Positions 1,590 through 54,474 of a stretch of 64,000 nucleotides of DNA are shown here, one piece after another. The position numbers and the translations under genes were made by a program. Numbering within the stretch: position 1 is the stretch's first letter; each line of letters starts with the position of its first letter. The notes beneath the pieces are model-generated. The model was not told the origin of the DNA, did not search any database, and worked only from the letters and a program-made list of their open reading frames with translations. Where the stretch lies: NCBI GenBank assembly GCA_030704615.1, contig CM060732.1, positions 24,862,001 to 24,926,000 of the forward strand. The letters run 5' to 3'. This stretch comes from Takakia lepidozioides. Taxonomy: Eukaryota > Plantae > Bryophyta.

Positions 1590-3360
1590 GAGGCACCTTC
1601 TTCTTCGACCTATTTCAGCTTGTTTTGCCCTCTCATCAGACTCGGCCTTGAGATGCATATCGACTTTTGTAAGTAGCTCGTTGGGTGGATCTGTGGTGGT
1701 TTGGAGTGACTTTGACAAGTTGCTGCCGATGTGGCAGCAGGAAAGTACCCAAAAACAAATAACAAAGATTTGCAGTACCTACATGTGAAATGGTCAGGTA
1801 GTTTAGGTTGATGGGGGTCTCCAGTTTGCATCCTTTGTCAAACAAGGGTGCATGTCCATAAATGGAAATGGTGAGTGTGGGGGGGGTGAGTTTGCAAGTT
1901 TGTTGTTCAACTCTTGTTTTTCTTATTGCAGGAAGCTTTGTGGAGGGATGAAGGCCGGAGTTACCAGTCATATAATAATCAGTTGTTTGAGAGGTGGCAA
2001 TCCAGGGAAGAAATAGATGGGCCAGGTCAGGATGGCCCCCAAATACTTGGAGACAAATGCAACACGACCACCACAAGGAAATAAAGTAAGATAAGATGCG
2101 ATATCATTTTGAAGGTTGATGTCGAGATCAAGAGCGTCTGGAATGGTGTTTTTTCAAGAAAATGTGTTTGTTTGGGAACATGTTTCAAACTGATGAAGTG
2201 TCAACAGTGGGGTTCAACCAAAAGTCACATTCTTTGCCTTCATTGCTAGCCTCGGTGGACCTATGCAGTGAGTTGTAACAGCATTGCCAAAACCACCTTG
2301 TTCTAGTTGTACGCCATTTCACACTTATGACCACATGGTGGGTGGGTGGATGGGCGGGTGCATATAAACACTACATGGGACTGGTGTGATATGAGTTGGG
2401 CATTGACCCAGAATTAGCCATTGGGAGCCCAACGGCTTAACCAGGGTGTCTACTCTGTTGGGCAGACTACATGAGCAATTTGCGGACAGATGGGAAGGAA
2501 ATGTTGAAGCATTGAAGAGGTATCAGCTCTGGAACCTCTAAACTGAGATGTGTTCGTTAATGTTAATGTCAGAAGATGCAAGGAAGTGAACATGCAAGAG
2601 ACAGGTGCTAGGCTAAGAAACAAAGTGAGAAAATCACAGTCCCTGCAAATGCTGGCTATGTGGTATCTTGGCATGGTTTTCGTAGGTCATACACCTTACT
2701 GCTACATTACCATTTATCTAAAATTTCTCTTGTTTAATTTTACATCAAAGCTTTTACTCAGCTGTGGAATGAACACTTTTCCAACCCCAGTCAATGGTGG
2801 GACAATGGAGGCAAAAAGGTGCATGCCTGTTGGATTACTGAAAAGCTGATGCAATTTAGAATTGGACTCTACTGTAATAAGTAGGGTTGGGGTGTTTGCT
2901 GGAAGAACTTCACGTCGTGCTGAAGGAGCGGGGATAGAGTGTGGGTCCAGATTCATCCAAGAGGGCCGGATTTGAAGCTCCAGATTATCTATGATTCCCT
3001 GTGGAAGGATAGCTACAAGAAACCTACATGGGTAGATGTGTCAACTGGAAGCCACAGCAGCAGCGGCTTAATTGATGAAATCAGGCACTGCTAGTCAAGG
3101 CATCTTCTTCAACACATTTCACCTTGTTTTCCCCTCTTATCAGAGTCGGCCTTAAATTTTCATGTTGAATTCTGCAAGTTAGCTGGTTGAGTGAATCTTT
3201 GATAGTTTGGAATGATTTGACATCATACTGCCAATGTGACATCAGGAAAGTATCCAAAAACAGGTAACAGAGACGAGGAGAAGTTGTGGAATGAATACTT
3301 TTCTAACCCCAGTCAATGGTGGGACAACCGAGGCAAAAATGTGATTGCCTGTTGGAAGCA
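1590..3360 (+). pseudogene. Degenerate tandem exons of an OSB-like (organellar ssDNA-binding, PDF-motif) gene
   Basis: WNEHFSNPSQWWDNGGKK (~2765), IHPRGPDLKLQIIYDSLWKDSYKKPTWVD (~2951) and WNEYFSNPSQWWDNRGKN (~3286) match the OSB PDF motif, split by a GT-AG intron. A diverged related copy lies at ~1590-1780. The array is interrupted by the MULE insertion. Confidence 0.65.
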
Positions 3361-3398
3361 ACGCAAGTAGCATAGGAACTAGTGTGATAAGTAGGGTT

Positions 3399-3450
3399 CA
3401 GGGATGCCTCGGCGTGAGCCTGGTCGCGTGAGCGCAGCTGCGCTCACGCC
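3399..3450 (+). repeat. Left terminal repeat of MULE, with GCGTGAGC motifs and a 24-bp palindrome (3426-3449)
   Basis: GCGTGAGC at 3412 and 3426 and inverted at 3442; GCGTGAGCGCAGCTGCGCTCACGC is a perfect palindrome; the same motif pair occurs at 15388 and 15401. Confidence 0.8.
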
Positions 3451-3619
3451 ATGTCACCTTGCGCCCACGCCACATCACCAATATCACTCCACGTCATTAC
3501 GCTTAAACGCCACGTCACCGCGCGCCAAGGAAGAAGCGGAGTGTATTTCCGCGGAATTGACCGCGGTAACAAGTTGGACGACATAATAAAAGGATGTGGT
3601 CACTCCCACATGAAAGTAA

Positions 3620-3960
3620 AAGATGAATGCGGTATGGATGAATGTAGCATGGATGAAACATTGATGGATGGGTGCGAACAATGCAAGCAGATGGATGAAA
3701 TACAGATGGATGAGATTTCAATGGATGAATGTATGATTGATGAATGTACAATGGATGTTGAACAATGGAAAACATTCATGAATGGAGGATGCATTCATAC
3801 ACAATACATGAATGCACAATGTATATGACATGAGTGTGAGGGGTTTGTAAGATGGATTCGAGAGTGCAGTGGATGAATGTACAATGGATGTTGAATAACG
3901 GAAAATATTTATGAATGGAGGATGCATGAAAACAGTGTAGATGAATGCACAATGGCTTTG
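3620..3960. repeat. Subterminal degenerate tandem repeat (ATGGATGAA-based) inside the MULE
   Basis: Repeated atggatgaa/atggatg units about every 15 bp, plus a larger duplication of about 125 bp (~3740-3820 vs ~3871-3950). Confidence 0.8.
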
Positions 3961-6413
3961 ACATGAGGTTGTGGTGGTTGTGGGATGGATTCATGAAGAT
4001 TTCCATTTCATTCTGAGTGGATTCTTTGTTCCTTTTTCTTTCTGCCGGAACATCTGCAATAAAGTAGGGGAATTCAATCTTTTACGAAGAGGATGAGAAA
4101 TGAACATAAAAAATGCGTAGTTCAGTCTGACTCAGAATCAGTACAATCTATCCCCGCGTCCTCTGCATCCAAGTCCAAGTATTTTAGAACTCCGGATCTA
4201 CGATGGCTACACCTGCGGTCGGGCAATAAAAAGTCAAGGGAGAGAGCCTCGGCCATTTGAAGTGCCATTGCTTCGGCATACACAGGAAGCACAAAAGTGG
4301 AAAGGGGGCTGTCGAAAACAGTCTCGCCACAAATGGGGGTGTCTCCTGAAGATCCACCGCTGCCTTTCTTGCAAGTCACAGCAAGAAATACGTTATTACT
4401 GCAAATTTGATGTCTGCGATTGAAAAGGGCACCCAAATTGGAATGACAATTCCATTGCAGACTTACTCACATGAAAAATCGTTGTGGACCTGCTTATCCT
4501 CGTGATCCTCATCATTTCGGATTCGAATCGTTTCAGTTTGTGTGCCTGATGTAGAGCCAGACAAAAGGGGGAGGAGCACAGTCTTGTATAGGTCAGAGTT
4601 ACCCTCCATGCCAAAATGGGATCTGCCGCCTGCCTTGCACGCATGGTAAGTTCCTCCTGCAACAGACAAGAGAAAATGAACAGCTTGTAGGGGGGCGATT
4701 AACGAAGATGAAAATGGTGAAAGAAAACGAAATCTGAAGGGAGAAAACGAACCTGTGGATACCGAGAGGTCGACCACCCGTGCAGAATAGTGGCTGCATG
4801 ACTCCATAGTGTCTGCATTAATGTTGGTCTTTTCTCCTTTGCACCTCTCCAGGGAGTGCCATCTGGTTTTTTGAGAGTCTGAGTGGGCTACATGAAGTTG
4901 TACAGGATGTCATCGACATGTGGCTCATATGGGGGATTGATGAAACTCCCTTGGTCAGAAATCTCGAAGCTGCGAATGGAGGATGATGTCTTTGAGGTGC
5001 GAATCCTCTGCAGGCAGATCGCCTCGAACATCCTCGTCTGCGAAAGACAGGAGGTTAGGGTGAGAAACATAAACAACAGTGGAGTTTTGTAGATTGGCAC
5101 TTCAAAACATACGCATGCAACAAACTGATAAGTCAAGTCTTTTTGATGATCGGTGCCGATAGAGTTACACTGTAAAATACATTGAAATAAAGCAACAAAG
5201 CACACCCAAGAGGGAGGTGTCATACCAACTGACCAGGACAACCCCCTTTCACAAGGTAGAGGATGTTCATACAATTCCATGTGCGCAGAATTTCAAACCC
5301 AGAGGACTTTAGGTACGATGCCAATGCCCGACGACTATCCTTGTCACATGACTGAAAGAGTAGAAGTGTCCCTGCATCAGAAAGGAAATAGTTGCAGAAC
5401 CCGAACACCCAACTCCAGTAGTTGTCATCGTATTTATTCCAGCTTGGCGTCTTGCCCTTCGGAAGAACATCTGGCACAGCCTGGCCGTCCGGGATGTCAA
5501 GAATGACCATGTCTGGAGCAAACTTTTTCTGCACACCGCACACGAAAGAGGGACCAGTGCTCACCTGCGACAGACATGTTCAATTTCAGAACGAAGAGAA
5601 GAATGACTACAAAGAAACGAATACCAATACTGCCAATGTCACCTACGAATGCAAAAAAAATAAAGTTAAATTCCTACCAGATTGAGGAATGAGATCATGT
5701 TGTCCCAAGTAGGCAAAGGCACCCCGGTGTATCCTTTCTTCCGACTCTCCATCATCGCCAGCCATCCCTCATTGACAATCTTAATCTCCCCTGCAGAATC
5801 AGCACGGGAAGGGTGTGGCCTGGCATCGAACACGCACTGAATTGTGCGGGTATACCTTCCGGCGGTGAAGTCCTTCTCACTCTCCTGCTCTTTTTTCTTC
5901 TCCTTTTCTTTGTCCTTCCCCTTCTCCTTTTCCTTTTCCTTCTCCTTCTCCTTCGACTTGTCTTTGTCCTTTGTCTTTGCTGGTGACTTGGCTGTGCCAT
6001 CTGCAGCCTTGTCTTTGGGTTTACGCCCACCCTTCTTGCCCTTCTGGGCTATTTCCAGAGCGTCAGGCTCCTTGGCAGCCAGTGCTGCTATGTTTCTTTG
6101 GTACTCCTCATCGTTCAGAGGTGCCAGCATCTCAGCATGATTGTTCTAATATTTTATTTGCTGCTCCTGGAAAGTCGTGTGCTCAGGAGGGCAGTTTAGG
6201 TACCAACCACAGTCCTTGAAGTGTGTAGGACTCCAGTCCTTCAGTATCCTTGCAGTATACATGGTTGGATCGTTTCCCAGGTCCGACCACATGTCAAGAT
6301 AATCCGGGACACCACTGAGGTGATTTCCATCCATCAACACATATTTTGTGTACCTGCGAACCACGAGACAAACTGGAAATCAACCTCTTTATGCAGAAGC
6401 CCATTGTTCTCAA

Positions 6414-6671
6414 AGTGAATGTCGGTACCGACATTCAGAAATTCATGAGAGAAACACTGCATAGAACTATTGGGCACCCTAGAAAACGTACAAGAAATCT
6501 CTCGGTATAGAAGCTCACACTAGTTTTGGATGCGATGGTCGTCAACGACAGTCACAAAATTCCATTCAAGAACACTGCCAACACACCCTAAGTTCCGTGA
6601 TCCAAGAGAATGAAATCTTTGTCCATAAGAGCTCACAGTCATGGAAGTGAATGTCGGCACCGACATTCACT
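6414..6671. repeat. Three copies of a 26-bp palindrome in an intron of the ParB-MTase gene
   Basis: 6414-6439 AGTGAATGTCGGTACCGACATTCAGA; 6531-6556 TGCGATGGTCGTCAACGACAGTCACA; 6646-6671 AGTGAATGTCGGCACCGACATTCACT. Confidence 0.9.
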
Positions 6672-8478
6672 TCCTATTAGTGAAGAGCCCTTCTAACAAC
6701 GCCTAAGGATTACTCAGAAGATGCAACATAGTTTCTAGTTGGAAATGCACCTGTACACAACTCGCATCATGGCCCACTCCCCCCCAACCTGACTGTCAAA
6801 GTCGTTGGACCGCAAAATGTTACCATCCTTCGAAAATTCCTGGAAAAAACAGTAACGCCAAGTGAGTCCTCTCCACTTCCTGATGTATGCTTCCAATGTC
6901 ATTTGAGGCGGGGAAACAATAGAAATGTTCAAGTCCTTCAAATTCTGCTCGAGGACAAGGATGACGTGCTTCTCCAGCTGCAAAGGGTACATTTGTCAGT
7001 TTTGCAAATAAGGTAGTCATGACATTCATGAAGTCAACAAAGATGAAACTTCAATGAATACACACCTGACTCCAAAATGTAGCCTTGTGAAGCCGGTTGT
7101 CAAACACAATGTCACTGATTCCCTCCACCTTTGTGCCAGGCTGTATAGTGCTCTTAGGGAACTGATTCAAGTCCTTCATTGTTTGATCTGAGTTCCAAAT
7201 CTCCAGCCATCTAGTTTTGGTTTGGGGGTCAATCATGGAGATGGCCCGCCTGTGCTCTCCAAGGCCAGGATCTACTATTCTCAGCTGCTTAGAGAAGGCG
7301 GACATCAGTTTGGTTCTCTGAATTTCATACTCCTTCTTTATTGCTGCCTCCACACCCTTTGATGTCCTAAGTTCCTCTGTTGTAGTGCGGTAGTATTCGG
7401 ATTTCCCCTTCTCAGCTGCATTTGCTAGTTCTTGCTGCATTGATCAAAGTAGGGATGAGTAAAAACGAATTACAAACATGTGTTCAAAAAGGCAAGTGAG
7501 TACAGGCTTGGCCTTACCGCATACATGTACTCCAGAAACGCCTCTCGAGTTAAAGAATACCAAGTGCATGCAGCTCTTCCTGTTTCGCACTTCTTGATTA
7601 TATCGGGGTGGAGTACTGTGCGAAAATCATCGAGCTTCATCAGACCAATCCTCTGAATTCGGAACAGTGCGTGGACCAAGCTTGTTGTCACATGCGATTT
7701 CTCTGTCGATCTGCAAAAAGATTGGAAACAATGCATTGGTAAACATCATTTTTTGGTGGGATCAACAAGACATTGGAGAGGCAATGGAGTCTCTAGGACG
7801 ACTTACTTGTTCACGTCGTGCATAGGTGTAAGAAGCCTAGCGATGTTGTTTCCAGGATCCAGAACCATTGCCTCTACAACAACATGCTTGTCTTTGTCTT
7901 TTGAATGATGTTTCTGAATATATCCCATCCATGCCAGCAATCGGTGGTTGCCGTCCCAGACGTAGAACATGTGGTTGCAGAATTGATGGGTGTTTCTTCC
8001 CATCATGAGGCCCAGCTCGAACTCCTCATTAACATCCTTCCAGCACTCATCCCAAGTATCTGTGATCTCAGGAGACACTAATGTGCTTTTCCCATTTGTA
8101 TCCGTCAGTGACACATAAAAAACTTGTGCACCAAGTCTGTATCCATGCACGAAATCAGTTTCCAATTTTGTAATGTCATGGGAAAGAGGAGGACGCATAA
8201 CAGGCATAGATATCATCCGACATAGTGGGATGTCCAGACGCCCTCCAGAGACGAGCATGTCCCTAATAACCTCCTGAGAGTTTACCTTCTGGAATGACAT
8301 GAGTTCTTTCACCTTGTCAAGGTAGTGCACTTCAGGTTCATCTGCTTCATCGCTATTCTCAGAGCTCTTGGCAGACTCGTCCCCATCTCCAGAACCTTTT
8401 GCCTCTGTTCCTATCTGCTTGGACTTCACAGTTTTCTGCACGATGCCATGCCAATCAAACACTGAGTTATGTGCAAAT

Positions 8479-9400
8479 AGTGAATGTCGGTACCGACCAT
8501 CAGTCTGTCCGTCTCAAATCACAGTGAATGGCGGCACTGACATGCACAATCATCTACACAAACAAAGCTGATACAGACCAAAACACTATGACTACATAGT
8601 GATGGTCGGTACCGACAATCACTATGTTTCTGGGCAAGCAGGTACAAAGAGGTTCTGAGCATTAGCGAACGGCGTTAACGACAATCAGTATGAGAGTACA
8701 TTTGAAGGACCTACAAGATCGGTTTGGTGCAAGGAAATATATCTCTTAGTGATTGGCGGCACCGACACTCACTTTAGTTTAGGGCAGAAAGTGAGTGCAC
8801 ATAAGTCAGAGAGACTCCGTTGTGATGATCGTCACAAACAATCACTATTTCTTGTCTGTTTGGAATGTACTTTGCAATCGATACTCTACATGAAGCTACA
8901 GTATGGTCTCAAAAAAGTGATTGGCGGTACCGCCATTCCTCTTCCCTAATCTGTTCAACCTGAAACAGAGAAAATGCAATGCAAGACAATATGACTGAAT
9001 ATGCCAACCATCACTCTCTCTCCACGCATACAGGTACAGGAAGCTCATGAGGAGAATCGAATGGCGTTAACGACATTCACACTACACTAGAATGGAAAAC
9101 ATTGCGTTTGGTGTAAGTCAATACTGGATCATAGTTACTGTCGGCACCGACACTCACTTTCTGTTGTATCAAAATGAGAGTTTTGAAAAGAAAGAGAATG
9201 ACGTTGCCGACAATCACAGGTTCCTGCTACAGAATGAAAGAGAAAGAGTGCTTGGAAGGAAATCAGACTGACTCTATGATATGAAGAACAGTGAATGGCG
9301 TTACTGCCAGTCACAAACTGCTGGTTTGGAAAACCATTAACATTGGAGTACAAAGCAAATCAACATGACTTCATAGTGATGGTCGGTACCGACCATCACT
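8479..9400. repeat. Twelve copies of the same 26-bp palindrome in intron 1 of the ParB-MTase gene
   Basis: Starts at 8479, 8523, 8598, 8664, 8748, 8821, 8916, 9056, 9133, 9193, 9290 and 9375; 9375-9400 AGTGATGGTCGGTACCGACCATCACT is a perfect palindrome; the spacers do not appear to be copies of one another. Confidence 0.9.
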
Positions 9401-10744
9401 TTCTAGGACATTTCACTCACTCTCTTCGTAGACTGTAAACAGGAAATGGAAGGTAGAGAACACATACTGGCGCCTTCTTAGGTTTGGAGTTTGGATCCCC
9501 TTCTGCAGCTTTCCTCTTCCCCCTCACATCTGCTGGAATTTATGTCTGCTCTAGGGTTTGTAGACCTTCTCCCGGTTCTGCGTTCCCCGGACTTCCACCT
9601 CCTTTTTCAATTTCCTTGCGAATCATCTCTGTTTCCACAGTCTGGTTTCCAATGCTCACTGTTCCCTCTGACTGTGTGACAGCTGCAGCCTCATTCTCGG
9701 TCTGCTCTTGTGTTGCAGTCTCCGCATTCACCTGCTGTCGTGGCCCTGTGTTCTCCATCAAACGACGCCTTGTCATTTGCTCTCTTGCTCTGAGTCTCTC
9801 TCTAAGGAAAGTAAAATAAAGTGACTTTCTTCTCTTTCGTATCGTAGAAGGAACCCTCTCCAGCTTGACTACCTCTCTCCCTCTAAGTGCGGAAACGAGA
9901 AAGACAAAGTGACTCTCGATTTCTTGCGGAGTTGCGTGCGTTGGGGATTGTTTCTAGAAGCATCGGATTCCCTCTCGCGTGACCGTTACACAAATGTCAT
10001 TCCCTTATTAGTGCACCTGCCAGCCATTAGTGGACAGCTGTTTGTCTGCAATGTAGTTATCGATGTCTGACGTGTGTCGCCCGAAATGAACGGCGTGTCA
10101 TTTATTTGAAGGGTTTCAATAATTTAAAATAACAGCGACAGATATTATAGATGAATATAACATTGCACATAAAAAATTAGCTGGTCTGACTGCTCAGCCT
10201 CAGACAATGCCTATGCCATCAGATTCATGGCACCATGGAATTAAAAATATGGGGCCATCTGGCGCACAATCTCAGACAAATAAATGTAAATGAACGAGTG
10301 TTTGATGACAAATTTCTGGATATCATTCACATTCATCCTTGTAAGCCCACCGCACGTTCGTTTCATAGTTTGGAATTTCCAGGTGCGCATGATCAATGAT
10401 ACTAGTGTAAAAATGCATTTATTTCATCTGCTATCCCACCCTCAGATCCTTTGGCACACTTCTGAGAAGTCGGCTGGTTATTATGTTAATTGATGAGGTT
10501 CTGAATAAAGGTTTCACAGCTACCGAAATTGTTCCTAGGGATACTTTGAATTCAGGGCCCACAAAAAAAGTAATTAAAATGGACGGCTGCATGTCTGGAA
10601 GAGCTTGCCAGAGGCAAGGAATAACAGAATGTGTACTTTCTCCGCGATATTCTCTGCTCATTCTTCAACAGTGTTTTGGAGACCTCAGTCAACAGATTTC
10701 AAAGAACTGCGATAACAAGGCATCTTCGTACGAGAGGAGGCAAG

Positions 10745-13700
10745 ATGGTTTCCTCTGAAGCGGAGTTCTTCTCAGACGAGAAACCAGTGCCGTTCTCCAA
10801 GGAAGCCCTTGACAATGGATTTGCAATTGTTCAGGAACATGTCTTGGCTACCCGGTTTGAGCTTCAGAATGGCTCCATTTTCTTGGAGAAAGAGGTGTAC
10901 GATTTGGATGGGAAGTTGTTGAAATACTCTTTCCAAAACCGTGATGAGACGGCTCATGTCAGCCAGATACAGAGTACTTGGAGAGCCTCGGCGAAAGTCC
11001 CTTGGATCATATATGACGCTCGGGACTGCTTGTTCAGTCGTTGAAGACAAGAGGGAGGTGGTGGTGAAAAAAGAACAGACGTTCTCCATTCCTATCGTTG
11101 AGCTTTCGGATTCGTCCGATGATGATATAAACGAAATTCCAAATGCAGTCCTTCCTACTGTAGTTGTGGAAGCGGATGAAGAAGAGATTTGTAGTGTCAT
11201 CCCAAAACTACGGGCGATGGGAGGAATGGCAGGTTTTAAAAGTGAGTTGCGAGGAATTGATTGGGAATCTTTGAAGCAGGTACCTGTGAAGTTCCTGCCA
11301 GAGACTTTTGATGGGGATATCCTATTCGAGCTGCCTCCTTCTCCACGAGTTGGAGGTATAACAAGCATGATGCACAGAATGGACAAAAAACACGACGAGC
11401 ACCCATGGTGCAAAACAAAAACATCCAATATTCAAAATGATGACAAGCTTGTTTTCAGGAGAACAGTTTGCAATGGACACCTTAGGTGTGATAATTTGAA
11501 TTGCAGACATTTTTTTCAGTCTGGGGTTCATAATCAAAGCGAGTGGGAGGGTCTCGCGGAAAATCCATTTAAGCCTGGGACTGCTCCTCCATCGGCAAAC
11601 ACTTTCGTTTGCAAATTCTGCAAACTTGTACCATCTTGCCTGGCGCTGTGCGGAACAAGAATGTACTATGTTGTCCACCGTTTGAAATTAATGACAAGAG
11701 CTTGTGTGCATTTCTATTTCCATAACCATCCTATCTCGAAGGGGGATTACAGGGAGAGTGTTGAGACAGTATCGAGGTTGATTAAACAGGAGTACGAGAG
11801 AAACCCATCCACAACAACATCTGCAATTGCTCTTGGCGCAAGCAAGTCCTTCTTGGAAAGCCATATTTTGAGTGAAGGGGATTCTGTGGGGACTAAACTT
11901 GACGGTGTAGCGTTGGACGTTGTCATGGATCATTTCTCCACTTTGAGTTCACCTAACATTCGGCATCAGATCAATGCATTGAGAATGGGTTCTGGGATCT
12001 GAGGCTACATAGACAACATTTTGGAATTGAAACGACTGAGCAAGTACGACTTTATCCAGGACAATGTTTTTCCAGGTCAAGGTGCCATCAAAGTATTTCT
12101 TTTCAAAATGTCGACTGCTGGGGAGGGCAGTGGGGTTAGCCTCGTGAAGCGGATGCAGAAGACTGGGGACCTGCATAATTATTTTCTTATGTTTGATCAT
12201 GTGAAACGAGTGAAAGATTGGACGACAATGGCTTGTCATGTCTACGATCTAGTGTACCAACGAGTTATGACAATTCCAGTTTGTGTCATGCAATCCAAGG
12301 ATACGGAATCCCAGAAGCTCATGTGGAATTCCCTGATACGTGTTATGGGATGTCATATGATGCTATCTCTAAATTTCGCTGGTTTCATGGCAGATAGTGC
12401 TCAGACGAATTTCAATGCAGTTCGAATTGTCTTCGGATCAGGCGACCCAAAAGTGCCAATGCCGGGAAGAAAGCGTACATGTCTATTCCATTGGACACAA
12501 TCTCTGGAGAAACATACAAAGTCGGACATCAAACCAGAGATGCAGACACAGCACCGTAAATTGTGCAAAGAGTACAAAGATGCTAGAACAATGAAGGAGA
12601 CAGACACTTTGTTCCAGACAATTCGTGTCTGGTGGTTCTCTTCTGGAGCTGCATCGCTTGAGAGTATGAGAGCATTGGAAGATTGGCTGGCGTTTTGACA
12701 CTTCCGGTACAGACAGTGGGGAGCAGCCATGACAATGGTGCGAGGTTTCTATTGCGTGCTTTATTCATACATTTACTTTCCAAATTTTGCTCTCCTTGCT
12801 TTCTTTATGTTGTTCCCTGTGCACTATTCTGAAGTGTGGTTCTCTTCTTTGCAGAACATGTCCATTGAGGAAATGGCGGACTTGCCATCTTGCAATTTGG
12901 CAGAGACTGTGCACAACGCATGGTTACAACATTCTGGGAAATGAGGTCGGGATTTGTATGTGGCAACAACAGATGATCTGATACGTGCCTTGCAACTACA
13001 AACCAGATACCGTGATTTCTTGCGAGGTGGGGTTGGTGGCAAGGGTCCGGACAAACTGGAGTTGTTGTTGCGTGCTACAAACAGATCTAGGGATCCAAGC
13101 AAGATAGCACGGGCGGTGAGCATGTATGCCCAGGGAACGCCACTTATTTCTAGAATTCCACATCTTGAAGGGGAGGAGAGATTCGGCTCCTGTAAGAGGA
13201 AATTGAACACCCCACCTGGTTCGGATTCCGATTCGCACAGGGCAGACCGTGATAACTTCTCGAAGCCTCATGTTCCCCTGCATGACAGATCCATTTCCGG
13301 AACCTCCATTCTGGAGGAACCTCCGACACGACGGCAGGCTCCAGCATCAAACAGTGCCATTGAAATGGTGCAGGAGAGAAACTACCCCCTTGATGTGCTG
13401 GAGTCCGCATGCCCCGACCACGTTTGACACATAGAACGCACAAGTGCAAGGTCTCGTGTGAAATGTACAGCGATCAGGGCAACTAATTTCGAGAAGTACA
13501 CTTCATCTATATCCAGAGGCAGTGTCCGGACTCCTGCTCCGACTTTCACGGGTTTGATGCGTCCATACGGCCAACTAGAAGCCAAGAACCACAAGTTCTG
13601 GTTTTGCGCAGACGATTGTGGTAGATGTGTGCATGGAACTGTGCGTCCTTCCGTGGTGATGAAGCCAACTCCTCCAACCGTTTGGCCCGTCAAGGTGGGA

Positions 13701-14126
13701 ACACATCTCACAAGTCAAGAGATTGCAATGCTGGAGGAGGCAGGCTTTTCCCTTGCGAGACAACCCCAACTGCATACATGTGCTTCTACTTCTGCGTCTT
13801 CTCGGGTCCCTCCGGCAAATCCTCACTTGTGGCCAACCAAACGAGATGGAAAGTTAATTCGGCGTTTCCCTCCAACCGCTGAACACTTCGGCAAAGTGAA
13901 GTCCGCAAGAATGCTCCAAGCTCGTGTTGCAAGCACCACGGAAGTGCCCGATCCAGGATATGGTCGGGTGTACACAATGATCACTTCGACATCTGCTGTT
14001 CATGACAGGGCTTACGACATCACGGTTTCCAATTTCCCCAATTGCACATGTCCTGATTTTGTGAATATGCTATCAACCAGTTTGGGCAAGAGATGTAAAT
14101 TCATACCCTGCAAACATTTGTATTTC
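10745..14126 (+). pseudogene. MULE transposase (GCM/WRKY-like Zn finger, DDE core, SWIM finger), decayed
   Basis: CNGHLRCDNLNC..CKFC..ACVHFYFHNHP; MFDHVKRV..FMADSAQTNFNAVRIVFG..CLFHWTQSL (CxxH)..CNLAETVHNAW; CTCPDF..PCKHLYF (SWIM). Intron at about 12738-12854. In-frame TGA stops at 12000, 12696, 12942 and 13425, consistent with CGA/TGG transitions. Frameshift near 11000. Confidence 0.9.
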
Positions 14127-14167
14127 AGAGAGGAAAAGGAGAGTGCAATTGCACCCAACTCAACTTT

Positions 14168-14290
14168 ATTGAAATACTTGCTGAAAAGCTCGCTGAAATA
14201 CTGAAATACTTGCTAAAAAACTCGCTGAAATACTGAAATACTGAAAATCCTGATTGAAATATTGAAATACTGAAATAGATACTAAAATAG
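14168..14290 (+). repeat. GAAATACT/GCTGAAA minisatellite, half of an array split by the inversion
   Basis: gaaatacttgctgaaaagctcgctgaaatactgaaatac repeats; the reverse-complement array is at 16055-16205. Confidence 0.85.
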
Positions 14291-14829
14291 AGTCCCAGGG
14301 AACGTTCCTAAGATTTTAAGCTGCACATCCACTTGTTGGATCAGAACACAGAAAACCTTGTCTAAATAATATGCATTGGCTTCATGACATCAACCATTGG
14401 GGACTACATACATAAGCCCTACCTCGTGCTCCAATCACTCGCAACTTCATGTATTCAGAGAGAATACCCTAGACAATGTAAAGTAAGATACAAGAGAGAG
14501 AGAGAGAGAATGTACTCATAAGACGTAATGAAGGGAAGCTTCAGTAACCTGGCAAGTCCAGACTATTTTGATGATGACAAAAGATGGACACTTGAGAAAT
14601 AAATGGAAGAGAATCGAACCGTTGCAGCACTTACAATGCAGTAAGGGGAGCCACCATGGCTCTCAGCATTGCAAACGCATACAAACGTTATGAGGTCGGG
14701 CTTCACCCCTTCCCCCTATCATTTGCTCATGGGTCTCTAAAGCCTCCATTTCGCGCTCCTGCTCTGCATACCCTGGAAGCATCGCACTCCACGACACCAC
14801 AACTTGTTCAGCAAGTTGACATGTTAGAA

Positions 14830-15330
14830 TGACATCTGGTAATCTGACGGGCATTCACTTTTTTGCCTGGGTTGTCCCATCATTGACTGGGGTCAAAAAA
14901 GTATTCATTCCACAACTTCTCCTCAATTCTGTTGCCTGTTTTTGGATACTTTCCTGTTGTCACATTGGCAGTATATTGTCAAAGTCACTCCAAACTAGAT
15001 TCACTCAACCAGCTAACTTGAAGAATTCAACATGGAAATTTAGGCCGATTCTGATAACAGGGAAAAACAGGGTCAAATGTGTTAAAGAAGGTGTCTTCAT
15101 TACCAGTGCCTGATTTTATCAATTGTGTCGCTGCTGCTGTGGCTTCCAGTTGACCATCTACCCATGCAGGTTTCTTGTAGCGATTGATCCACAGGGATTC
15201 ATAGGTAATCTTGTGCTTGAAATCTGGCCCTCTTGGATGAATTGGGACCCACACTCTATCCCTTTATCTTCAGCTATCAATGCCTCTGCACAAATCATGC
15301 ATACATCATTGCCTTACTGCTAGCAGTTGA
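14830..15330 (-). pseudogene. OSB-like PDF-motif exon unit (original right flank of the MULE, now inverted)
   Basis: IHPRGPDFKHKITYESLWINRYKKPAWVDGQL in ORF 15027-15254; the region is a reverse-complement homologue of ~2900-3360. Confidence 0.7.
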
Positions 15331-15374
15331 CAATGACAGCCTAGATTTTTTCTAAGAAACACCCAAACCCTACT

Positions 15375-15410
15375 CAACGACGCAATGGCGTGAGCCTTGC
15401 GCGTGAGCGT
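15375..15410 (+). repeat. Right terminal repeat of MULE (appears in direct orientation because of the inversion)
   Basis: CAACGACGCAATGGCGTGAGCCTTGCGCGTGAGCG aligns with the left end and abuts the reverse-complemented TSD. Confidence 0.8.
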
Positions 15411-16054
15411 GATATCAGCAGGCTGATATGGCGACAAATGTTGATGTGGCACTGCGCCGTCATCTGCCACGTCAGCATGAACATGCGCTGCATATAACCG
15501 AGGATGGTCCTATGACCGTGGGATTAATGCAGGGAATCCTTGGCTGAATACAATCAAGACTATCATGAGGCCTACAATTGTAGCATCCAACATTGTACAA
15601 TTACAAATGTTTGTTTCATTTTTACACTTACAAGGACGAGAAAATATCCTCACAAAGTGTGCGCCATAGAGGCTGCAACGGGAAGACCTTGCTCCCTCCC
15701 CAAACAACAATGAGAGTTAGGATCATCTTCAAAAGATGATTGAAGTGCATAACGACAGGAAGACATGTAGACTTCGAAAGGTGCAATGATGCATGTGCTT
15801 TTAAAAATTTCCACTCAGAGCTCACTCAGTATAGTTGGAAGGATAATGGAGGGATAAGGGACACCATATCATTGCACCGCCGACGATGTTGCAAACGAAT
15901 TGATTTGAATTGAATTTCCATGACAATGTTGTAAATTGCACATTTCATAGCATGGTCGTCCACATACCACATTGCATAGTTGATGCTACCTATGTGTTGT
16001 ATCCCGCTGCAATAGACGAAGTTGTCACGTTTGGGATCGCAAACCATCCTCTTC

Positions 16055-16205
16055 TTTCAGCGAGTTTTTCAGCAAGTATTTCAGTATTTCAGCGAGTTTT
16101 TCAGCAAGTATTTCAGTTTTTCAGCAAGTATATTGATATTTCAGCCAGTTCTTCAACAAGTATTTTAATATTTCAATGAGTATTTCAACAAGCATTTCAA
16201 TATTT
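16055..16205 (-). repeat. TTTCAGC/AGTATTTC minisatellite, other half of the split array
   Basis: Reverse complement of the 14168-14290 repeat units. Confidence 0.85.
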
Positions 16206-18505
16206 TAATAACTAGTAAATTGGAAGATCAGTTTTGTAATATCATACATCAATATTTAATTCACACATCAATAAAGTTGTGCCAGGACCTCTGTCCCCAA
16301 ATAAATAAATAAATAAATAAATATTTTTCCTCTTATGTAGAACATGTTTGACATATAATTCGAATATAAAGTAAACGGCCAACGCCCTTACAAAAAACAT
16401 AAAAATAAAATAAAATCGAATATGTCATATGCAATATGATATATTTCAATATAATATTTTTGGGGAAATTTTCAACTTAAAGAGTTGTAGGGTGGAGCCA
16501 TTACGCGACTAGCCGCTTGTTTCATAAAGAAATGATGTGTTTTTCACACTAAACTAACAAGAACATTTTCTGATGAAGTGCGACATGTAAGATGAATGTA
16601 ATCATTTAGTACCCTTATATATATATATATATGTACATATATAAATAGATAAATATAAGACGCCAACATAAGCTAGCCTAAATAAGAGCCTCTTCCCTTG
16701 CGGGTATTGCCCCTTTTGGGTGGGCTCTTTACCAGACCAGCCCCGTATCAGCTAGCGCCACTACCTAGCATATACCTTATTGGCCCGAAATTGTGTTTAC
16801 AATTAATCCTCTGGTCGATACCCTACCAGCCTGATCGGTGGTTGAAAATTTGGTACCTGATACCAGTAGTAGATCCATTTTGAGAGGAAAACCTAGGTAT
16901 GAGCATGGACGGCGCACGCGACATGATATGAATGTGGCTCTTTCAATAAGAGAAGTGGAAATCAGGTGTTGGTGTTTTGGTGGGGTTGTCGTGATTGATC
17001 CTCAACATGCTTGTTACTATCGCTCGATGATTTTTATCAAGTGCGCAAGTAATATCAAAATATAGCGAGTTTTTAACCAATATTAATAATTCCTTGGTAT
17101 CAGATACCAATAAAACACCACAGCAATAATGTATTGTTGATACCACCATGGTATTCAAATATCAGATTTTTCCCAATAATTGCGGTCGCGGTCGAACTTT
17201 ATACCAGTAGCAGTATGGTATGTTCAAAATACAATACCAGTCCAACATTGGTGTGGAGTGGACTAGCGACCTTTTTGACCAAACATACTTCTACAAATCA
17301 GTGTGAATTCTGATCTGAGAATCTACTGCTAAGCGAACATGCATCCACAGTCCCACCGTGACTTGGGAAACATTTTTCCTTATTACATTGGCTCCTATAG
17401 GGCCCACCCCTCAAAGGGGGCCATAGGGAAGGTGAAGCGGTTCTTTCGTGACGCCGTACCGGGGAGGGTTCTTCTCCTGTAAGATTTGAACCGAGCCGGC
17501 CAAAGCCGGAGTCTTCTGTCTCTCGGCACTTGCTATGTACGTCGGCCCTTTACCCACCGACCCTTCAGTAGATCCGGAAATTGTTCTTCCACTTGCATCC
17601 CGCTAGGGTTACAAACCACCCATGCAATAATATTCCCCCACAAAATAAATTAACTTACAACTTTGGTAAAATTGGAGGGACCAGCGTCCTCGTACTCTTG
17701 CATTTTCGGCTCGAGGGCGGCGTTGCTTACCGTGCGGTACAACTCTCTTCCCAGTGCACAATGCCTTTTGCTTGCTGCTTATGTCGAATTTGGAGCAAAA
17801 CAAAACCATTCGGGACGCCGGTCCCTTCTTCCCCCAAAAAACCGTACTGAACCGAATCATTTGCCCGCCGTGCTCATCCCTCCCATGCCGTGTGATGCGC
17901 GACTAGACTTTTCTTCATACATGTTCATGCAGACAAGGCAGCGCGGAGCCATGCATTGCGCTTTGGAGCTGCAATTATGGTCGGTTCCGAGGCACCTTAC
18001 CCTCTCACCAACCATACTGGCAGCTGTGGGCCCACACCTGGGCTCCCGTTGTCTTAGAGGGGACGGGACCTACAGAAACGTGGATGCGAGGTACATTCAT
18101 CCAAAGCTCATTCCTACGTCGGGTCGCATTGCGGTGGTCGTTCGCCCAGCCCGTGGCGCCCACGCGGCGGCCGTACGTTGCCCGGGCGGAAACCGAGCCG
18201 GAGGCATGGGGAAACCCGAGGCAGCATGGGAGGGGCAGGTTCGGAGCCGAGGCGGGAAGGTGTTGCGCTGGCCAGCATCGGCGGCTAGGACCGCTGCGCT
18301 TGCACCACGCGGGCAGTGAGGTGCGGAGAGAGAGGACAGCGCTGAGTGAAGGCGTGAGCTCGTCCTTGTGTGCAGGCAGGAAGGAGGTTGTGAGAGAGGG
18401 AGAGAGAAGAGAGGAGGGGTGCGATGCGAGAGTAGGCCTGCGGAATGCGCGAGTCAACCGGGGATTTTCGAGAAGCTGGCATCGTGTAGTGGCGGGAGTA
18501 GAGCC

Positions 18506-29600: not shown

Positions 29601-32600
29601 TTTGAATGTCATCCTCATGTGTGTCAGATATGTTCTTCACTTCAATTGCAATTACCTGTGTTTTATGTAATCTCAATAGTGATCACCAAGATAGGATCAC
29701 TTAAAGGTAGTTGTAGTGTTCATCGAAGGCGATCTATAAGACTGGAAAAGATGACAAGAATCTTGGACGGACCTTGCATTTGAAGTCTACCTGGTACTGT
29801 TCACTGAAGGCGATTTATAAGACTAGAAAAGATGACAAGACTCCTGGACAGACCTTGCATTCGAAGTCTACCTGGTACTGTTCACTGACGGCGATTCATA
29901 AAACTAGAAAAGATAACAAGAATTTTGGATGGACCTTGCATTTGGAGTCTACCTGCCACAGGATTTAAGTGCCGAATTGTAACTGGATCTAGAAGATGCA
30001 GAGGTGGAAGGCTAATAACCAAAACAGTTGAATACAAACAGGCCCTTATGATGGAGGTTGGGGTGGTGTTCACACAGGGCTATGCTGGAGCTCAATCAGA
30101 TTCTACGTGCAAATGAAATCAATTTTGCTATTTTGGCAGCTTTGCCAGCCTTCTTTTTTGCAATCACTCTTGGGTGGCTGTTGCAACGGCCCTTCACTGA
30201 GGTTTTGATTGATCATCTCTACTGAATATCCTTATGATCTGACATTGCTGATTTATATCATTGAACAGTTTCTAGGAGACAGTTTACATCCAAGTTTTTC
30301 TGTAATGGTCTTCAGTGCCAGATGTTACTGTAGATGTTCATGAGGCATGAATTCAGCTAGTAATGGCATCAGCCTGATTGCGCCCAGAAGTGGCACTTCT
30401 GAAAGGCAGTGCTCTAGTTTCTTGCTTTGAGTCAGACAGTAAACTGTTCTGGCTGCAGGGCAAGGGGGCAGAAGGCCGGGGAAGGGAGGCCCAGACAATG
30501 AGGCGCATGCTTATGGTGGATGTTGATAAAGCAGTCATGACATGCCAAATGGCAAGTGACGAAGGGCTGGTAAGTTCCCTTGGGTTCTAAATTAATTGGG
30601 AGTGCTTCCAACTCTTTCAGTGCTTTGCATAGTCACACGCGTCTATCATGTCATACTCATGGATACTGTAACTGGGCATGCCATCCTGTACACAACATCA
30701 GTTTGGGAATAGGAGCACATACCTCATCTTTTGATACAAAAGCAAACGATTTAAGTGTCCATGTGATAGCATCCCACAGATATCTGTGGTGAGACTGATA
30801 TCTGTTGGACCCCAGTGTTGGACATGTGGAGATGGACGCCAATGATGCCAATGATTTCCAGTGTGGGGGTCTAGTTGTGTTTTGAACCTGACACACTAGG
30901 ATTTCTCGTGGGGAAAGGGTTTTCTAGCCATATGTTCGTCATCTCCTTCATCATGTCTCTTCAGGGGACATGAACAAGGACAAAAAATGGTGTACTTAAA
31001 AGACTTCATGCGCGGTTGCTTTTGTGGCCACAGACCCCAATGCCAGTTCACGCAGAGCAAAAAAGGGTGTAAGAGGAGAGCAGACATTGTGGACCTTCCT
31101 CATCCAGTAGTGGGACTCAGCTTTGTGAAATATCCGCCTTCCAGAGTAGCACAACAAAAGCCTTTGGTCAGTGTCAATATCATGGGGGGAACTCCTCCTT
31201 AGTTCAGTCTCAAGGGGTAGCACAGCTTTCAGCATTGTCACAATGCCTCTCAAGTGAATGAAAAGAGATGTAGTGTCAAGGGCAAGAGATTGTACTCATA
31301 AGACGTTGTTTGCCGTAGCCTTGTGGCCATTGACCCCGCGCCCAGTTTGAGCGGGAACAAAAGGGACAGAACCTACCTCTGTCAGGGGCTGATGTTGGTA
31401 GTAAGACTTACCTCCATATAAAGAATTAATCCGGGTTTTCCAGATATCCTCTAGAAATCCCTTCACACAAGCATCAATCTGCTGTGTGTGATTTGCCCAA
31501 AAACTAGGCCTCAGGAGGGCCTGGGCTTTTGGCTCAGCCTCGAGACTTTCAAAGTTGGCGAACAGGGGTACAGGCACAATTCCCTTAATAGATTTGAAGA
31601 GAGCGTCTCTTTGGTGAGAGAACCCCGGACAGTGTATCAGAAAATGAATACTGTCTTCAGATTGCCCACACAAGGGGCAATTGCACTCTCCCTTTCCTCT
31701 CTGCTTCTGTTTGCTGTTCAAAGGTAGGCTTCCTGCCCTGAGTTTAAATTTCAGTCTAGTGCCGAGAGTGGGTAGACCCTTGAGGTCATCCAAGATGTCC
31801 TCCCCACGTCACAGACTGGAAACAAGTTCAGGGAAGTTTTCTGCCTAACTTCATTTTCATCAGACAATCTCATGGCAACAGACATGGCTGAGGACACTAC
31901 AGCCTCTAAGTCAGATTTATCCAGCAGGGTCAAGACTTGCGGATCCAGGTCCAGGTCCTTGAGGATCTCTTCTACTCTCTTCTGCCAGGACTTAGCCTGT
32001 TTGACAGGGCAGTCCTGTTTCCAAGATATAGAGTCGATTAACTTAGGATATCTGGTGTTGGGCATATGTTGCAGCTGACCCCACCATCTGACCTTGAATT
32101 CATCTCGTCGGGAGCTTAAGGACGGAATGCCAAACTCACCCCGAACAGCCACATTGGCTGTTTTGGAGCATGCTGACATACACTCCTTAAGCACCCCCAC
32201 TTGAATGGATTCTAGAGACTTAGCCTGGTTGGAGTTATCAACCCATATAGCAGATCCGTACTCCAAGGCAGGTCTAATAACGCGACAAAGCATGGTTTTC
32301 TTAACCTCAGAGTTGACCCCTCTGCAGTGGAAAAATTTAGTGAGCCCCAGAGCTTTGCCCTTGCCAGTTTGAACAACTTTCCGGATATGTGCATCCCAAT
32401 TACAATTGGAGGAGAACTCAACGCCCAGGTAAGTGTAGGAAGGGAGGACCGGGATCTCTTGGCTACCCCACTGCCACTTAAGATCACTTCCTCCCTCTCC
32501 TCTGTCGTTGAATGCTACCACTGCACATTTGCTGACATTAGCCTCTAGCCCCCAAAGATCAAAGTATCTCTTCGCGCAATCAATCAACTCCTGGAGATTG

Positions 32601-33930
32601 GTTGGAGTCTCCCCTATGCCTGCGAAGTCATCCGCAAACATAAGGGCTGGTATGGTGGTATCACCCACCCTTAACCCAAATCCCTCACTTTCCACATCCT
32701 CGAGGAGTTGATTGGTGAAAACATTGAAGAGCAGAGGGGAGAGAGTACATCCTTGAGCTACACCTTGGTCTATGTCAAAGAAGTTGGACTTCTGTCCGTT
32801 AACAGTGACACAGCTTTTGGTGTGAGCATACAAGTTGTGGACAACTCTCCACATCTTTCCCTTGATCCCACAAGACCAGAGGCGGAACCATAGGCCATCT
32901 CTCCACACTGTGTCATAAGCCTTTTTGACATCCAGGAAAAAGACATAAGTGGGTTGCCCTTCAAGGGCAAGACAGTAATGTAATAGTGTGGCCGAATTAC
33001 AAATTGTGTGAATAGTGTGTACATTGCCTGCTTATCAAAAGTGGGTTTTGCCTAACCCATGTGCTTCAGTCGAACCCTTCATTCTAAACTGACAGCAAAT
33101 GGATGCTCCAGGAAGAGGATGCCGTTATGGACTTTGGCATGCTGATCTACTACCTCGATCGCTTATACAAGGCTGTCAAGAGGCCTGCAAAATTGACTGA
33201 CGAGTGGTCAAGGTCAGTCAATGCTTTCCACCATTATAAAGTGCTTGGTACTTTCTTTTCTAACATCAGTACTTTCCTCTTTAGCCTCTGCATGGTTCCT
33301 AAGCATGGTGGAACTTAAAAAATGGGTCTAGTCTCAGTCTCAGTTATATGTAAAAGCCTATTTTTATGTTTGGGATTCCAGCCCCATGTAGGTACATTGC
33401 CTTGTCCGTTGCTCTACCAATGCATGAAGTCACTGGGATAACCTGCCTCCTGCTCACTGAGGGTGAGAAGCTGTTATGAATTGGAAATTGGTTCAACTAG
33501 GCACGGTAATTGGGTGGAAATAAAGTAGCAATGAAGTTTATGTGATTGGTCTCGCTTTAAACCAATTTGCCATGTGTACTGGATCAGAAAGATCAGTGGT
33601 ATTAAGTTGTGCTGTCAGGAAACGGGTGCACACCGTGCACTATTTTTCCGCATTTTGGACTGGTGGTTGGGTGTTCCTTGACCAGGTCAGGTCAAGAGAG
33701 TGACACCAGATGGATGCAACCTAAAGCATAGAAGCCAAGCCATCTACAGTGATGCTTGGTGTGTTGCGTTAGTTTTCAATGTTGCTGACTGGCACACTTT
33801 GGCTGTCTTCAGTTTGCAGCAGGATATTGTTGACCTTGCAAAGCCGAGGATGTCCACCTACTACAAACTTGCAATTGCTGCACGGATGGAGCGGGTCTAT
33901 GATTGCCTTGCTCCCATACCAAAAGTGTAG
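23664..33930 (+). CDS. DGS1: DGS1-like (NCA2-domain) mitochondrial outer membrane protein, multi-exon; start codon uncertain
   Basis: Exon peptides HLRFWQNRAQ (~24200), FMVLERGPWAF (~25370), YYRRPRKVVRHW (~27040), RYEQELTHPVKNLVGGELARALLIQ|VQKLKLDIE, EINFAILAALPAFF (~30115), GAEGRGREAQ (~30470), FGMLIYYLDRLY (~33130), RMERVYDCLAP* (33930). Not all splice sites were verified. Confidence 0.85.
29715..29955. repeat. Three-copy ~81-bp tandem repeat in a DGS1 intron
   Basis: Unit like ctgttcactgaaggcgatttataagactagaaaagatgacaaga...ccttgcatttgaagtctacctggta, repeated three times. Confidence 0.85.
31288..32960 (-). mobile_element. 5'-truncated non-LTR retrotransposon (LINE; RT plus C-terminal CCHC) in a DGS1 intron
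   Basis: FLDVKKAYDTVWRDGL, GVAQGCTLSPLLF, LMFADD, YTYLGV; CPLCG..HFLIHC; one frameshift near 31790; 12-bp TSD TCAAGGGCAAGA at 31276-31287 and 32961-32972. Confidence 0.93.
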
Positions 33931-35049: not shown

Positions 35050-37493
35050 TCACTCGTACAAATGGGCAGCCAAGCGAGGGTGTGCAACAACATGCAGGGA
35101 GTGTTCCCTGCCGACTGTCAGTCCAAAGTGTTCCGACATGTCCAAAGTGTCAGGGTCTTGCTCTTTTGGCAGACTCCAATTGAAGCTCTGAAGAAGGTGA
35201 GCTAGTAATATTTGAACCATAAGTAGTCCCAGGGAGAGTCCTGGGCATCCCCTTCTCCCACTCCCAAAAGGCAAAAGCTGAAAGTTATGGCCTTTGACAT
35301 CAATGTCAGGATGCTGCAATATAAATCTATCAGGTTCAAACGCCAGAGGTCTCTCCCAGATGGAAGGATCGCGCCCAATAGCCCACACGTTGACGAGCAC
35401 TCGGGTCTTTGCTGGCAGATTATAGCCCAGTACTTGGCATGCCTCACGACACTCATGGGGAAGCAAGAGTGGCACTACGGGGTGGAGGCGAAAGGTCTCT
35501 TTAACTACAGCTTGTAGGTACTTGAGATGTGGGAGGTCTGACTCCTGGACAAGGCGAGTGGTTCCCACCACAGCATCCAGCTCAGTCTGTGCGCGCTTCA
35601 TAACATCGGGGTGTCGCAAGAGCTCGGCCATCGCCCACTCTGTTGTGAGCGCGGATGTGTCTGTTCCACCATTTATCAAGTCCTACATACACACAAGGAC
35701 GGACAACAAGTTCTTTTTTGTGAGTTGTGATTCAAGATTCCGCCAACTTGCATGTGATCAGGAGTCTACCTCGAATTTCAAAACTCCACAAAATTGTAGC
35801 TCTAGTGTATCTACAAAGAAACTACGTACGATGTATATATATGCTAGTCTCAATTTAGGAGAAATCCGAGCTTACTATGATCACGAGTCTTATCGATTCG
35901 TCAGAGAGATGGTCACATCCATCGTCTGAAGGCACGGTGCTCAGGAGCACATCAATAAAGTCTGTTGGAGCTAGAGAAGTCGTACCCCCACGTTCAATAG
36001 TTGCAGCGTGTCTGTGGTCGTCAATGAACTGTTGAAGCAAGCTGGAAACTTCAACATTTACCTTCCTCATACGCGCGTCGATGCCTTGCAACTTTGATAC
36101 CCACTGTAAGGAGGGGTTAAAGTCACCAATGATGAACACCCCCATCCAGTGGAGAACCTCTTCCATACTTGTCTTGAATCTTCGCGCCTCCTTCTGGTCT
36201 TCCAATGTCTCCGATGTTCCGAAGTACCTGAATGGACCCATGTGGGCTTGTCTATATTCTCGCCTCTATTACTACAGTCTACCCTCTATATGTGTTACAC
36301 CTGGGGAGTAGAGAAAATGTAACAAATATAGATTATAAAAATCACACTTACAAAAGGAACACGTACACCAGAGCTTGAAAACCAGAATCTTGAAGAGTTT
36401 GAATGATCCCCATGTTCAATAAAATTAAAGCGCAGACAGGTCTAATTGAGATATGTCACAAGGTCATGAGTCATGACCCTTAGACCAAGTTCAGTCTTGT
36501 TATACATCTATACCTGCATTTGAAGAAAATTAACACTTATTAAGGGTCAATTAGTAAAGCAGGGAGTAACCGAAAAAAACATCATAGCACATAACATTCT
36601 ACACTTGCTTAAAAACAAGATAACAGATAAAGAGGGTTAACAGATATGGAGGGTAGACTGTATGGCGCTAATAAGATGAAGGATAGACCCCAGGTGGGGT
36701 TCGGCAACAGTTTTCCCCAACTTGAACGTGAAGATTTGCAGATCAGGATCTAGTACATAGGATGTGGGAGGTGGCCAACAATAATTGTTTTCTGATGTTT
36801 TTTGAACGTCAGACGTCAATCCACTATTCAGTGCCAGCAGGTAAAACGATTCTCAAATTCTATTCACCTTTTTTTGAAAAGCATGCGTGTCATGTTGTTT
36901 GCAACGGTCGACCAAAGCTTGAAGTTGAGGTCCACCACTTTCCCTTCATGCGACTCCTCAATGATGGTCTTCATTGTGGCAGTTATCTCATCTGTTCTTA
37001 CAGTTCGAAACGATTCCAGGCGTTTTGGCGTGAATAGCTCAAGCAGGCATATCTTGCGCAAAAGTCGCCAATAGGCACCATTAGCAAAAGCAATGTCCTT
37101 GTCCTTGGCAACGAGGATGTCGGCAGACAACAAGTTTGGACGGTAAGAAAACTCCTGATCATGCGTACTGAGAAACTCTCTTGCCATGTTTGGGGAGGAT
37201 ATCACGACAGCGGGGGTGGATCCGAGCCGCAGGTACATCAGAGGGCCATATTTCGCAGCCAGGCATGCCAATGCCTGGTGGGGCCGCTCACCCAAAAGTA
37301 GAAGACTGCCCAGGATCGGCCATGGGTACGGCCCCGGAGGTAGCCTACTTCGTAACTTTCTCAGGAAAAGAGTGTGCACTGCAACAGCGCCGAGTATACC
37401 TGCCAGCGCTAGCAGCCCCACACAGTCCTGAATCAACCTGCAAATGGTTGAACCAGGCTGATCTAGCTGGGTGGATGCTTCCGTGCCTTCCAT
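35050..37493 (-). CDS. Cytochrome P450, CYP71 clan (A-type), 3 exons, 536 aa, apparently intact
   Basis: Exons 37493-36868, 36227-35876, 35682-35050 (1611 nt). Motifs PPGPYPWPILG, GGTDTS, ETFRLHP, FEPDRF, PFGSGRRGCPG. Confidence 0.95.
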
Positions 37494-54100: not shown

Positions 54101-54474
54101 GACTCTGGAACGATCGTTGGGATACCCGCAGAGACTAGAGACTGTCCAGAGTGTGAAGCATCAGACGCAGTGGACGGATCCCAATGATGTCGATGGAGCG
54201 AGCAGCAAGAGTGGCCGATGGTCGAGCACGTGTTTTATGGTGCTCATTTCTTCAGAGCCAGTTGCAATCACCAGCTCGTTTAGTACCTCGACGATTTACG
54301 GATATCTAGATTGAGTAACTGTAGATCTGACGTCTGACAGCAACATATCTAACTCTCCCCAGCAAGAGAGTTCAAGTATAGAACCGGTCCACCAATACAT
54401 AAACAATACCCACGTGGAGAGCGAGAGAGAGAAAATCATAACAGGAAGTCTGCGAAGAAGAGAGCGCGCAAGTG

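Follow-up and report, generated by a model that had tools for sequence, protein, structure and literature searches.

The window, a 64,000-nucleotide stretch of Takakia lepidozioides contig CM060732.1 (positions 24,862,001 to 24,926,000), carries on its minus strand a gene of roughly ten exons, the 3' part of which consists of methylase exons. The product likely has a ParB-type N-terminus and a methylase-fold end. A nine-exon model running from 9776 to 4464 contains eight GT..AG introns, in phase, and 1,073 codons. Exon 1 (9468..9776) holds the probable start codon, and exon 2 (7807..8435) encodes the likely ParB/sulfiredoxin-type domain. Exons 3-6 (5678..7710), a middle region and Lys/Glu-rich linker, are supported by tblastn with moss and other relatives, the matches including exons 4 and 6. 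Exon 7 (5226..5564) encodes the motif IV strand, a W-N pair and the subsequent helices. It is followed by a 188-nt GT..AG intron (5038..5225) and by exon 8 (4753..5037), which encodes motif X (GAKEK) and motif I (VVDLSVSTG) and is interrupted in the window copy. At the end of motif I lies a 96-nt GT..AG intron (4657..4752), at a position common to relatives, and beyond it exon 9 (4464..4656; 3' border provisional) with the post-motif I helix and motif II (GMEG). A probable last exon (4121..4413; 5' border provisional) resembles the C-terminus of the Ceratodon relatives (43% over 54 aa, E 7e-4, tblastn, 4319-4161). An earlier sequence-only reading of this DNA had assembled a methyltransferase from three exons; these were found on the minus strand at 5564-5226, 5037-4753 and 4656-4464, with the 96-nt intron exactly where that reading had put it (4752-4657) and the second GT..AG intron at 5225-5038. 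Its suggestion that the introns reflect long residence in a eukaryote is supported by the conservation of intron positions in relatives.

The window copy of this gene is a pseudogene. Three stops (9542-9540, 6148-6146 and 4890-4888) and one frameshift interrupt the nine-exon model. Within exon 8 there is an in-frame TAG at 4890-4888, and one base is missing at 4807/4808, which shifts the frame; neither lesion is found in other copies, in which contigs show the extra base at 4807/4808 and a sense codon stands at 4890 (29,204 of a summed depth of 29,258 in run X1). Position 6147, within the second stop, is likewise a different letter in other copies. Because of the missing base and the TAG, the spliced frame of the window copy stops short of motif I. 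The peptides quoted in the sequence-only reading and their order, IV...X-I-II, could all be recovered, although EKRPTLMQTLMESCS spans two frames in the window copy. Broken here by the frameshift, that peptide nevertheless fits intact copies, since these have both the extra base and the sense codon.

Evidence on splicing comes in part from sequencing runs X6 and X7, which are taken as RNA by guess, no run containing the stretch being recorded as RNA. One X6 contig from a diverged copy skips the 188-nt intron exactly (193 skipped, with 5 letters between); this single contig has two further inserted letters. The same contig reads through the 96-nt intron and is the sole presumed-RNA contig to span it. 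Retention of the intron in this one presumed transcript speaks against the splicing that had been proposed to join motif X-I to motif II. Relatives count for the intron: all seven unspliced gene-caller products depart just past the motif I Gly, whereas the three annotated Ceratodon proteins all run on from that Gly into the next helix. The 96-nt intron (4657-4752) is in frame and stop-free, and its equivalent is also read through in one relative, P0017. Its retention would insert 32 residues in the SAM loop and could act as a regulatory switch.

A phmmer search with exon 7 returned 84 proteins at E<=0.001, many of them fragments from gene callers, possibly of dead copies. Profiles confirmed 81 of the 84, the remaining three (P0004, P0060 and P0081) being excluded for want of such confirmation; two of the 81 lack motif IV coverage, which leaves 79 for counting at that motif. 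The relatives have identities of 23-41%, and those with names are hypothetical proteins of Ceratodon purpureus. These moss relatives, like the P450-like genes that flank the stretch, agree with a plant host. A word-index protein search with P0047 as query found three Ceratodon proteins, and longer relatives were absent from such searches (one of them limited to 1407-4015 aa). A metagenome scan with exon 7 gave 0 relatives in 177 stretches.

Structure comparison supports the assignment of the C-terminal domain to the beta-class N4C/N6A amino-methyltransferase fold with permuted motif order, in agreement with the fold and IV...X-I permutation that had been claimed. The model used is that of the domain of the moss relative P0047 rather than of the window protein (39-row alignment, pLDDT 79), with which the window protein aligns across all motifs. 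Its top Foldseek match is CcrM (6PBD, E 5.5e-13), and VIA-align places it on CcrM with Z 18.4 and rmsd 3.4 over 221 aligned residues. M.BceJIV, M.PvuII, M.MboII, a type III Mod and rotifer N4CMT come after CcrM (Z 16-17.5); the top 11 rows are bacterial-type amino-methyltransferases or rotifer N4CMT throughout, and MT-A70 enzymes come next (Z 9-12). Identity of the beta-class enzymes to the model is 10-15%. Pfam N6_N4_Mtase had no match at E<=1 in the three window exon pieces scanned, but the same profile (PF01555) matched a moss relative weakly, at E 0.015 and 15.7 bits vs a gathering cut-off of 26.7. A PHROGs DNA methyltransferase match was obtained at E 4.9e-5, and phage matches to the methylase domain are weak (best E 3e-3 among the best 20 of 283). 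In a 14-row tree, a long branch parts ten eukaryote-type rows from four phage rows and names no donor. One locus, L007, was kept out of the alignment, its gene being in pieces.

The DIPD reported for motif IV is present at 5498-5487 on the minus strand, and the question whether the family consensus is DIPD or DxPY is answered by the relatives, most of which read DxP[ED]. Among the 79, position 1 is Asp in 64 and Glu in 9, position 2 is never Pro, position 3 is Pro in 66, and position 4 is Glu or Asp in 68 and aromatic in none. The catalytic (D/S/N)PP(Y/F/W) motif, which would need a second Pro and an aromatic residue, is therefore missing from all of them as well as from the window. Downstream of motif IV, W is kept in 78 and N in 80 of the 81 confirmed relatives. 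This near-invariance beside a non-canonical motif IV indicates a domain that is conserved and a motif that is not canonical. Since the same substitutions recur across relatives, DIPD does not represent decay, with the proviso that the search was seeded by exon 7 of the window, so DPPY-bearing relatives may have been missed. In ten long relatives, motif I keeps its Asp and last Gly in 10/10, its first Gly in 3/10 and its Phe in none. Motif X keeps a Lys equivalent to CcrM Lys193 in 8/10. The motif II Glu is kept in the window and in the three aligned relatives that extend that far. The four phage methylases read DPPY, DLPY and DPPY at motif IV (one is without the region) and have GSG and the first Gly in 4/4, with the motif I Phe missing in two. 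Part of the drift seen in the gene family is thus tolerated in annotated methylases.

What these changes may mean for the pocket can be judged against enzymes of known mechanism. According to the available part of the CcrM account, the adenine is held by Asp31, by main-chain atoms of Pro32 and Tyr34 and by Lys193, and is stacked by Tyr34 and Thr191 (PMC6787082). A change of SPPY to APPA abolishes the activity of rotifer N4CMT in the corresponding part of its own report (PMC8885841). With the Asp mostly kept and the Lys present in eight of ten long relatives, CcrM-type adenine contacts could survive. Retention of the hydrogen-bond partners and loss of the stacking Tyr across the gene family, as far as sequence comparison can suggest, favours a weak or dead enzyme. 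The shared non-canonical motif IV gives substance to the proposal of a pseudo-enzyme, a reader or altered chemistry, although it does not choose among the three.

The N-terminal assignment is a lead. Exon 2 has Atlas feature matches of 0.91-0.95, a ParB-named cluster among them; its neighbours include a cluster named for ParB/sulfiredoxin (0.94) and another in which 11% of the members carry ParB_N. Its VWDGNHRL motif presumably corresponds to the ParB/sulfiredoxin-type motif that it resembles. Comparison of the exon with Pfam, NCBIfam and the named PHROGs returned no match, a single-sequence fold reached pLDDT 34, and a tblastn search of phages with the ParB-like exon found nothing. For want of a profile match and in view of the fold score, a ParB/sulfiredoxin-type domain is given here as likely, and as a lead only.

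The introns of the gene contain a further conspicuous feature. Twelve copies of a 24-bp imperfect palindrome, with 9-bp arms around a GGYRCC-type centre, lie in intron 1 (8480..9399), and three more lie in intron 5 (6415..6670). These 15 copies are all that occur within the 64 kb, and 0 fall in exons. Shuffling intron 1 thirty times gave at most one palindrome vs the 12 observed. As beside the red-algal ParB genes discussed below, an inverted-repeat array adjoins the ParB-like exon. The arrangement recurs at a relative locus, L001, which is 40% identical in exon 2, shares the next intron and is degenerate; upstream of the ParB-like exon it carries a 24-bp palindrome six times, vs at most two in 30 shuffles of the region. 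At L001 the 9-bp arms are not those of the window, but the GGYRCC-like centre recurs. L002 differs so little from L001 that the second array counts as one locus. A scan of viral contigs with the palindrome found none.

Divergent from the ParB-methylase gene, a MULE-like transposase lies on the plus strand (10740..14127), cut off near 14127. Its motifs D, D, CxxH and E and its SWIM-like end were recognized by eye against the description in the accessible text of PMC5225508. Among profiles, SWIM scored E 0.26-0.33, under the cut-off, and the MULE Pfam domain had no match; a PDB sequence search and a viral-contig scan with the transposase found none. The window copy has four in-frame TGA codons; at two of them, 12698 and 12942, other copies read a sense codon. 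Many copies of the stretch exist, since run X1 yields 37,153 contigs that match 2500-15600, with all 30 bins covered. Contigs of both presumed-RNA runs cease matching at 14127 and then continue with other letters. Among the contigs listed from other copies, none reaches from the ParB-methylase gene to the transposase. The element ends, where a Mutator-like element would have terminal inverted repeats and an 8-10 bp target duplication, were not found, the right end being lost near 14127; linkage of the two genes beyond the window copy is therefore something we infer. At the point of cut-off, a 30-bp piece (14126-14155) matches a LINE-like region at 31674-31703.

An inverted pair at 2931-3352 and 14847-15262 was considered as the terminal inverted repeats and rejected, since partial copies occur at 1599-1768 and 2760-2888; the position of the right arm (14847-15262) within another repeat-bounded stretch also counts against that reading. 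The pair is 423 nt long, 87% alike and very abundant in DNA and presumed-RNA runs, and is probably a separate dispersed repeat. Its translation contains a WNEYFSNPSQWWDNR motif without a Pfam match, which we take to resemble the PDF motif known from ssDNA-binding proteins of organelles. After the PDF-like arm, in the same orientation each time, is a GGCGTGAG-rich motif (3405-3440 and 15385-15420) that may mark an element end. Inverted arrays of GAAATACT-type short repeats (14167-14287 and 16023-16214) flank a 2-kb stretch that is like a non-autonomous element, and terminal repeats similar to these arrays occur at L001 (3223-3377). Downstream of the gene and within the multicopy stretch, short repeats of the ATGGATGAA type occur at 3619-3992 together with a 121-nt duplication.

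Genes of this kind are known from algal transposons; the motif variant and the target-site layout were not found in print. In the available part of its description, the accessory gene of Ectocarpus Sola1-1_Ec32 encodes a 1104-aa ParB-methylase opposite the transposase, a protein suggested to bind the element it belongs to and to modify it (PMC12477816); that part gives no motif IV sequence and mentions no palindromes. It is alike in its size of about 1,100 aa, its ParB-like and N4C/N6A methyltransferase parts and its placement on the strand opposite the transposase, and differs in belonging to a brown alga and a Sola1 element; the likeness is one of description only. As far as the accessible preprint text goes, the red-algal Plavaka/Mutator genes PAG2 and PAG3 provide transposon-borne PF01555 methylase and ParB-like genes, and in Bostrychia tandem inverted repeats adjoin the ParB gene and are proposed as ParB sites (10.1101/2025.02.11.637652). 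The window gene would share the transposon-borne ParB and methylase, and it has an inverted-repeat array beside its ParB-like exon as well. PAG2 and PAG3, however, keep ParB and methylase apart, in different genes with fusions to a 2OG oxygenase and a SET domain, whereas the window gene likely has both in one gene with a non-canonical motif IV. The algal ParB-methylase genes are, in these same partial sources, predictions from domain content. The preprint states, in the part available, that an ability to bind and modify its own sequence has been described for VANDAL elements only (10.1101/2025.02.11.637652). The Arabidopsis VANDAL protein VANC binds motifs of its own family in introns and other non-coding DNA, according to the accessible portion of its report (PMC5735166). 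VANC is comparable in serving a plant DNA transposon as an accessory protein and in having motifs, specific to the family, gathered in introns and other non-coding DNA. It differs, on the same partial account, in its DUF1985/DUF287 domains, in its short tandem motifs and in that anti-silencing is shown for VANC and is conjectural for the moss gene. DUF1985 and DUF287 had no Pfam match in the window exons or in the long relatives. CcrM, M.PvuII, M.MboII, rotifer N4CMT and Marchantia DN4MT1 share the fold and permuted motif order and differ in keeping DPPY or SPPY and in being active, as given in the parts of their descriptions available. The available portions of PMC4738411 and of the Marchantia preprint contain no description of the window gene family, and a literature search covering few subscription papers found no report of a land-plant ParB-methylase version or of a DxP[ED] motif.

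The gene is likely an accessory gene of a Mutator-like transposon. For its working, we hold with about even confidence that the product is a VANC-like transposon accessory protein which binds its own palindromes and in which the methylase domain is a pseudo-enzyme. The intact protein would join a ParB-type domain to the beta-class fold, likely without methylation. Its pocket would keep the Asp and Lys for a flipped base but be without the stacking Tyr and, in many cases, the first SAM-loop Gly; given those losses, the methylase fold would read a sequence or a base and act as a scaffold. We infer that the protein binds the palindromes of its own element as a dimer, with specificity for the family residing in the arms, and that it thereby protects the element or activates it. 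By loading on many sites in the introns it would maintain transcription of the element despite host silencing, in the way that VANC acts on VANDAL elements.

The main alternative, which deserves weight though on the whole it is unlikely, is that the domain is a working methyltransferase whose pocket has been remodelled and which writes 4mC or 6mA at the GGYRCC centre of the palindromes. Asp and Lys would then hold the flipped base, and an Arg/Lys with the near-invariant Trp would replace Tyr stacking. The motif I Asp and last Gly in all ten long relatives, the motif X Lys in eight and the motif II Glu wherever aligned speak for such an enzyme, as does a palindrome centre of one type common to two lineages with differing arms. 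Part of the contact in CcrM is made through main-chain atoms of Pro32 and Tyr34, and the algal relatives are themselves presented as predicted methylases, in both cases as far as the partial sources go. Set against this are the absence of an aromatic residue at motif IV position 4 from all 79 relatives and the loss of the first SAM-loop Gly in seven of ten; searches of titles and abstracts found no amino-methyltransferase that is active with an acidic residue at that position. We know of none ourselves.

A bolder form of the same idea is that land-plant transposon beta-class methyltransferases with Tyr replaced by Glu or Asp are still active, or perform other base chemistry, at the shared GGYRCC centre as a private anti-5mC mark; we regard it as doubtful. 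If it were true, the private DNA mark of each element would block host 5mC silencing. The land-plant variant offers candidate target sites whose centre is conserved while the arms are swapped, together with a change of the catalytic motif that is conserved as well, so a direct test is possible of whether the protein reads or writes a mark on its own element.

The likely ParB-type domain also suits a protein that clamps or loops the element through its palindromes for synapsis, or that represses its own promoter, and the palindromes of intron 1 lie about 1.3-2.3 kb from the divergent transposase start. Such a helper of transposition, as opposed to a chromatin regulator, has little probability, however: the palindromes are internal and intronic, near no known end, in a layout like that of VANC targets. 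It is very improbable that the gene is neutral cargo whose odd motifs reflect decay in dead copies; the window copy and L001 are both broken and many hits among the relatives are fragments, but the same substitutions persist at 23-41% identity with W and N near-invariant, intron positions are common to relatives, and the domain is open in three named Ceratodon proteins. A ParB-type partner would point to DNA, and with DNA enzymes scoring higher (Z 15-18) than the MT-A70 RNA methylases next in structure (Z 9-12) and perfect-centre palindromes that leave no loop, it is hardly credible that the palindromes, intronic though every one is, are RNA hairpins in pre-mRNA that the protein binds or modifies.

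Elsewhere in the window, features recognized by eye include two cytochrome P450-like genes in opposite orientation, judged from open reading frame translations (35050-37580 on the minus and 54442-56564 on the plus strand), a LINE-like reverse transcriptase (31296-33031, minus strand) and LTR-retrotransposon-like fragments at 42363-46114 (plus strand), 49805-50407, 58677-59300 and 63579-63995.
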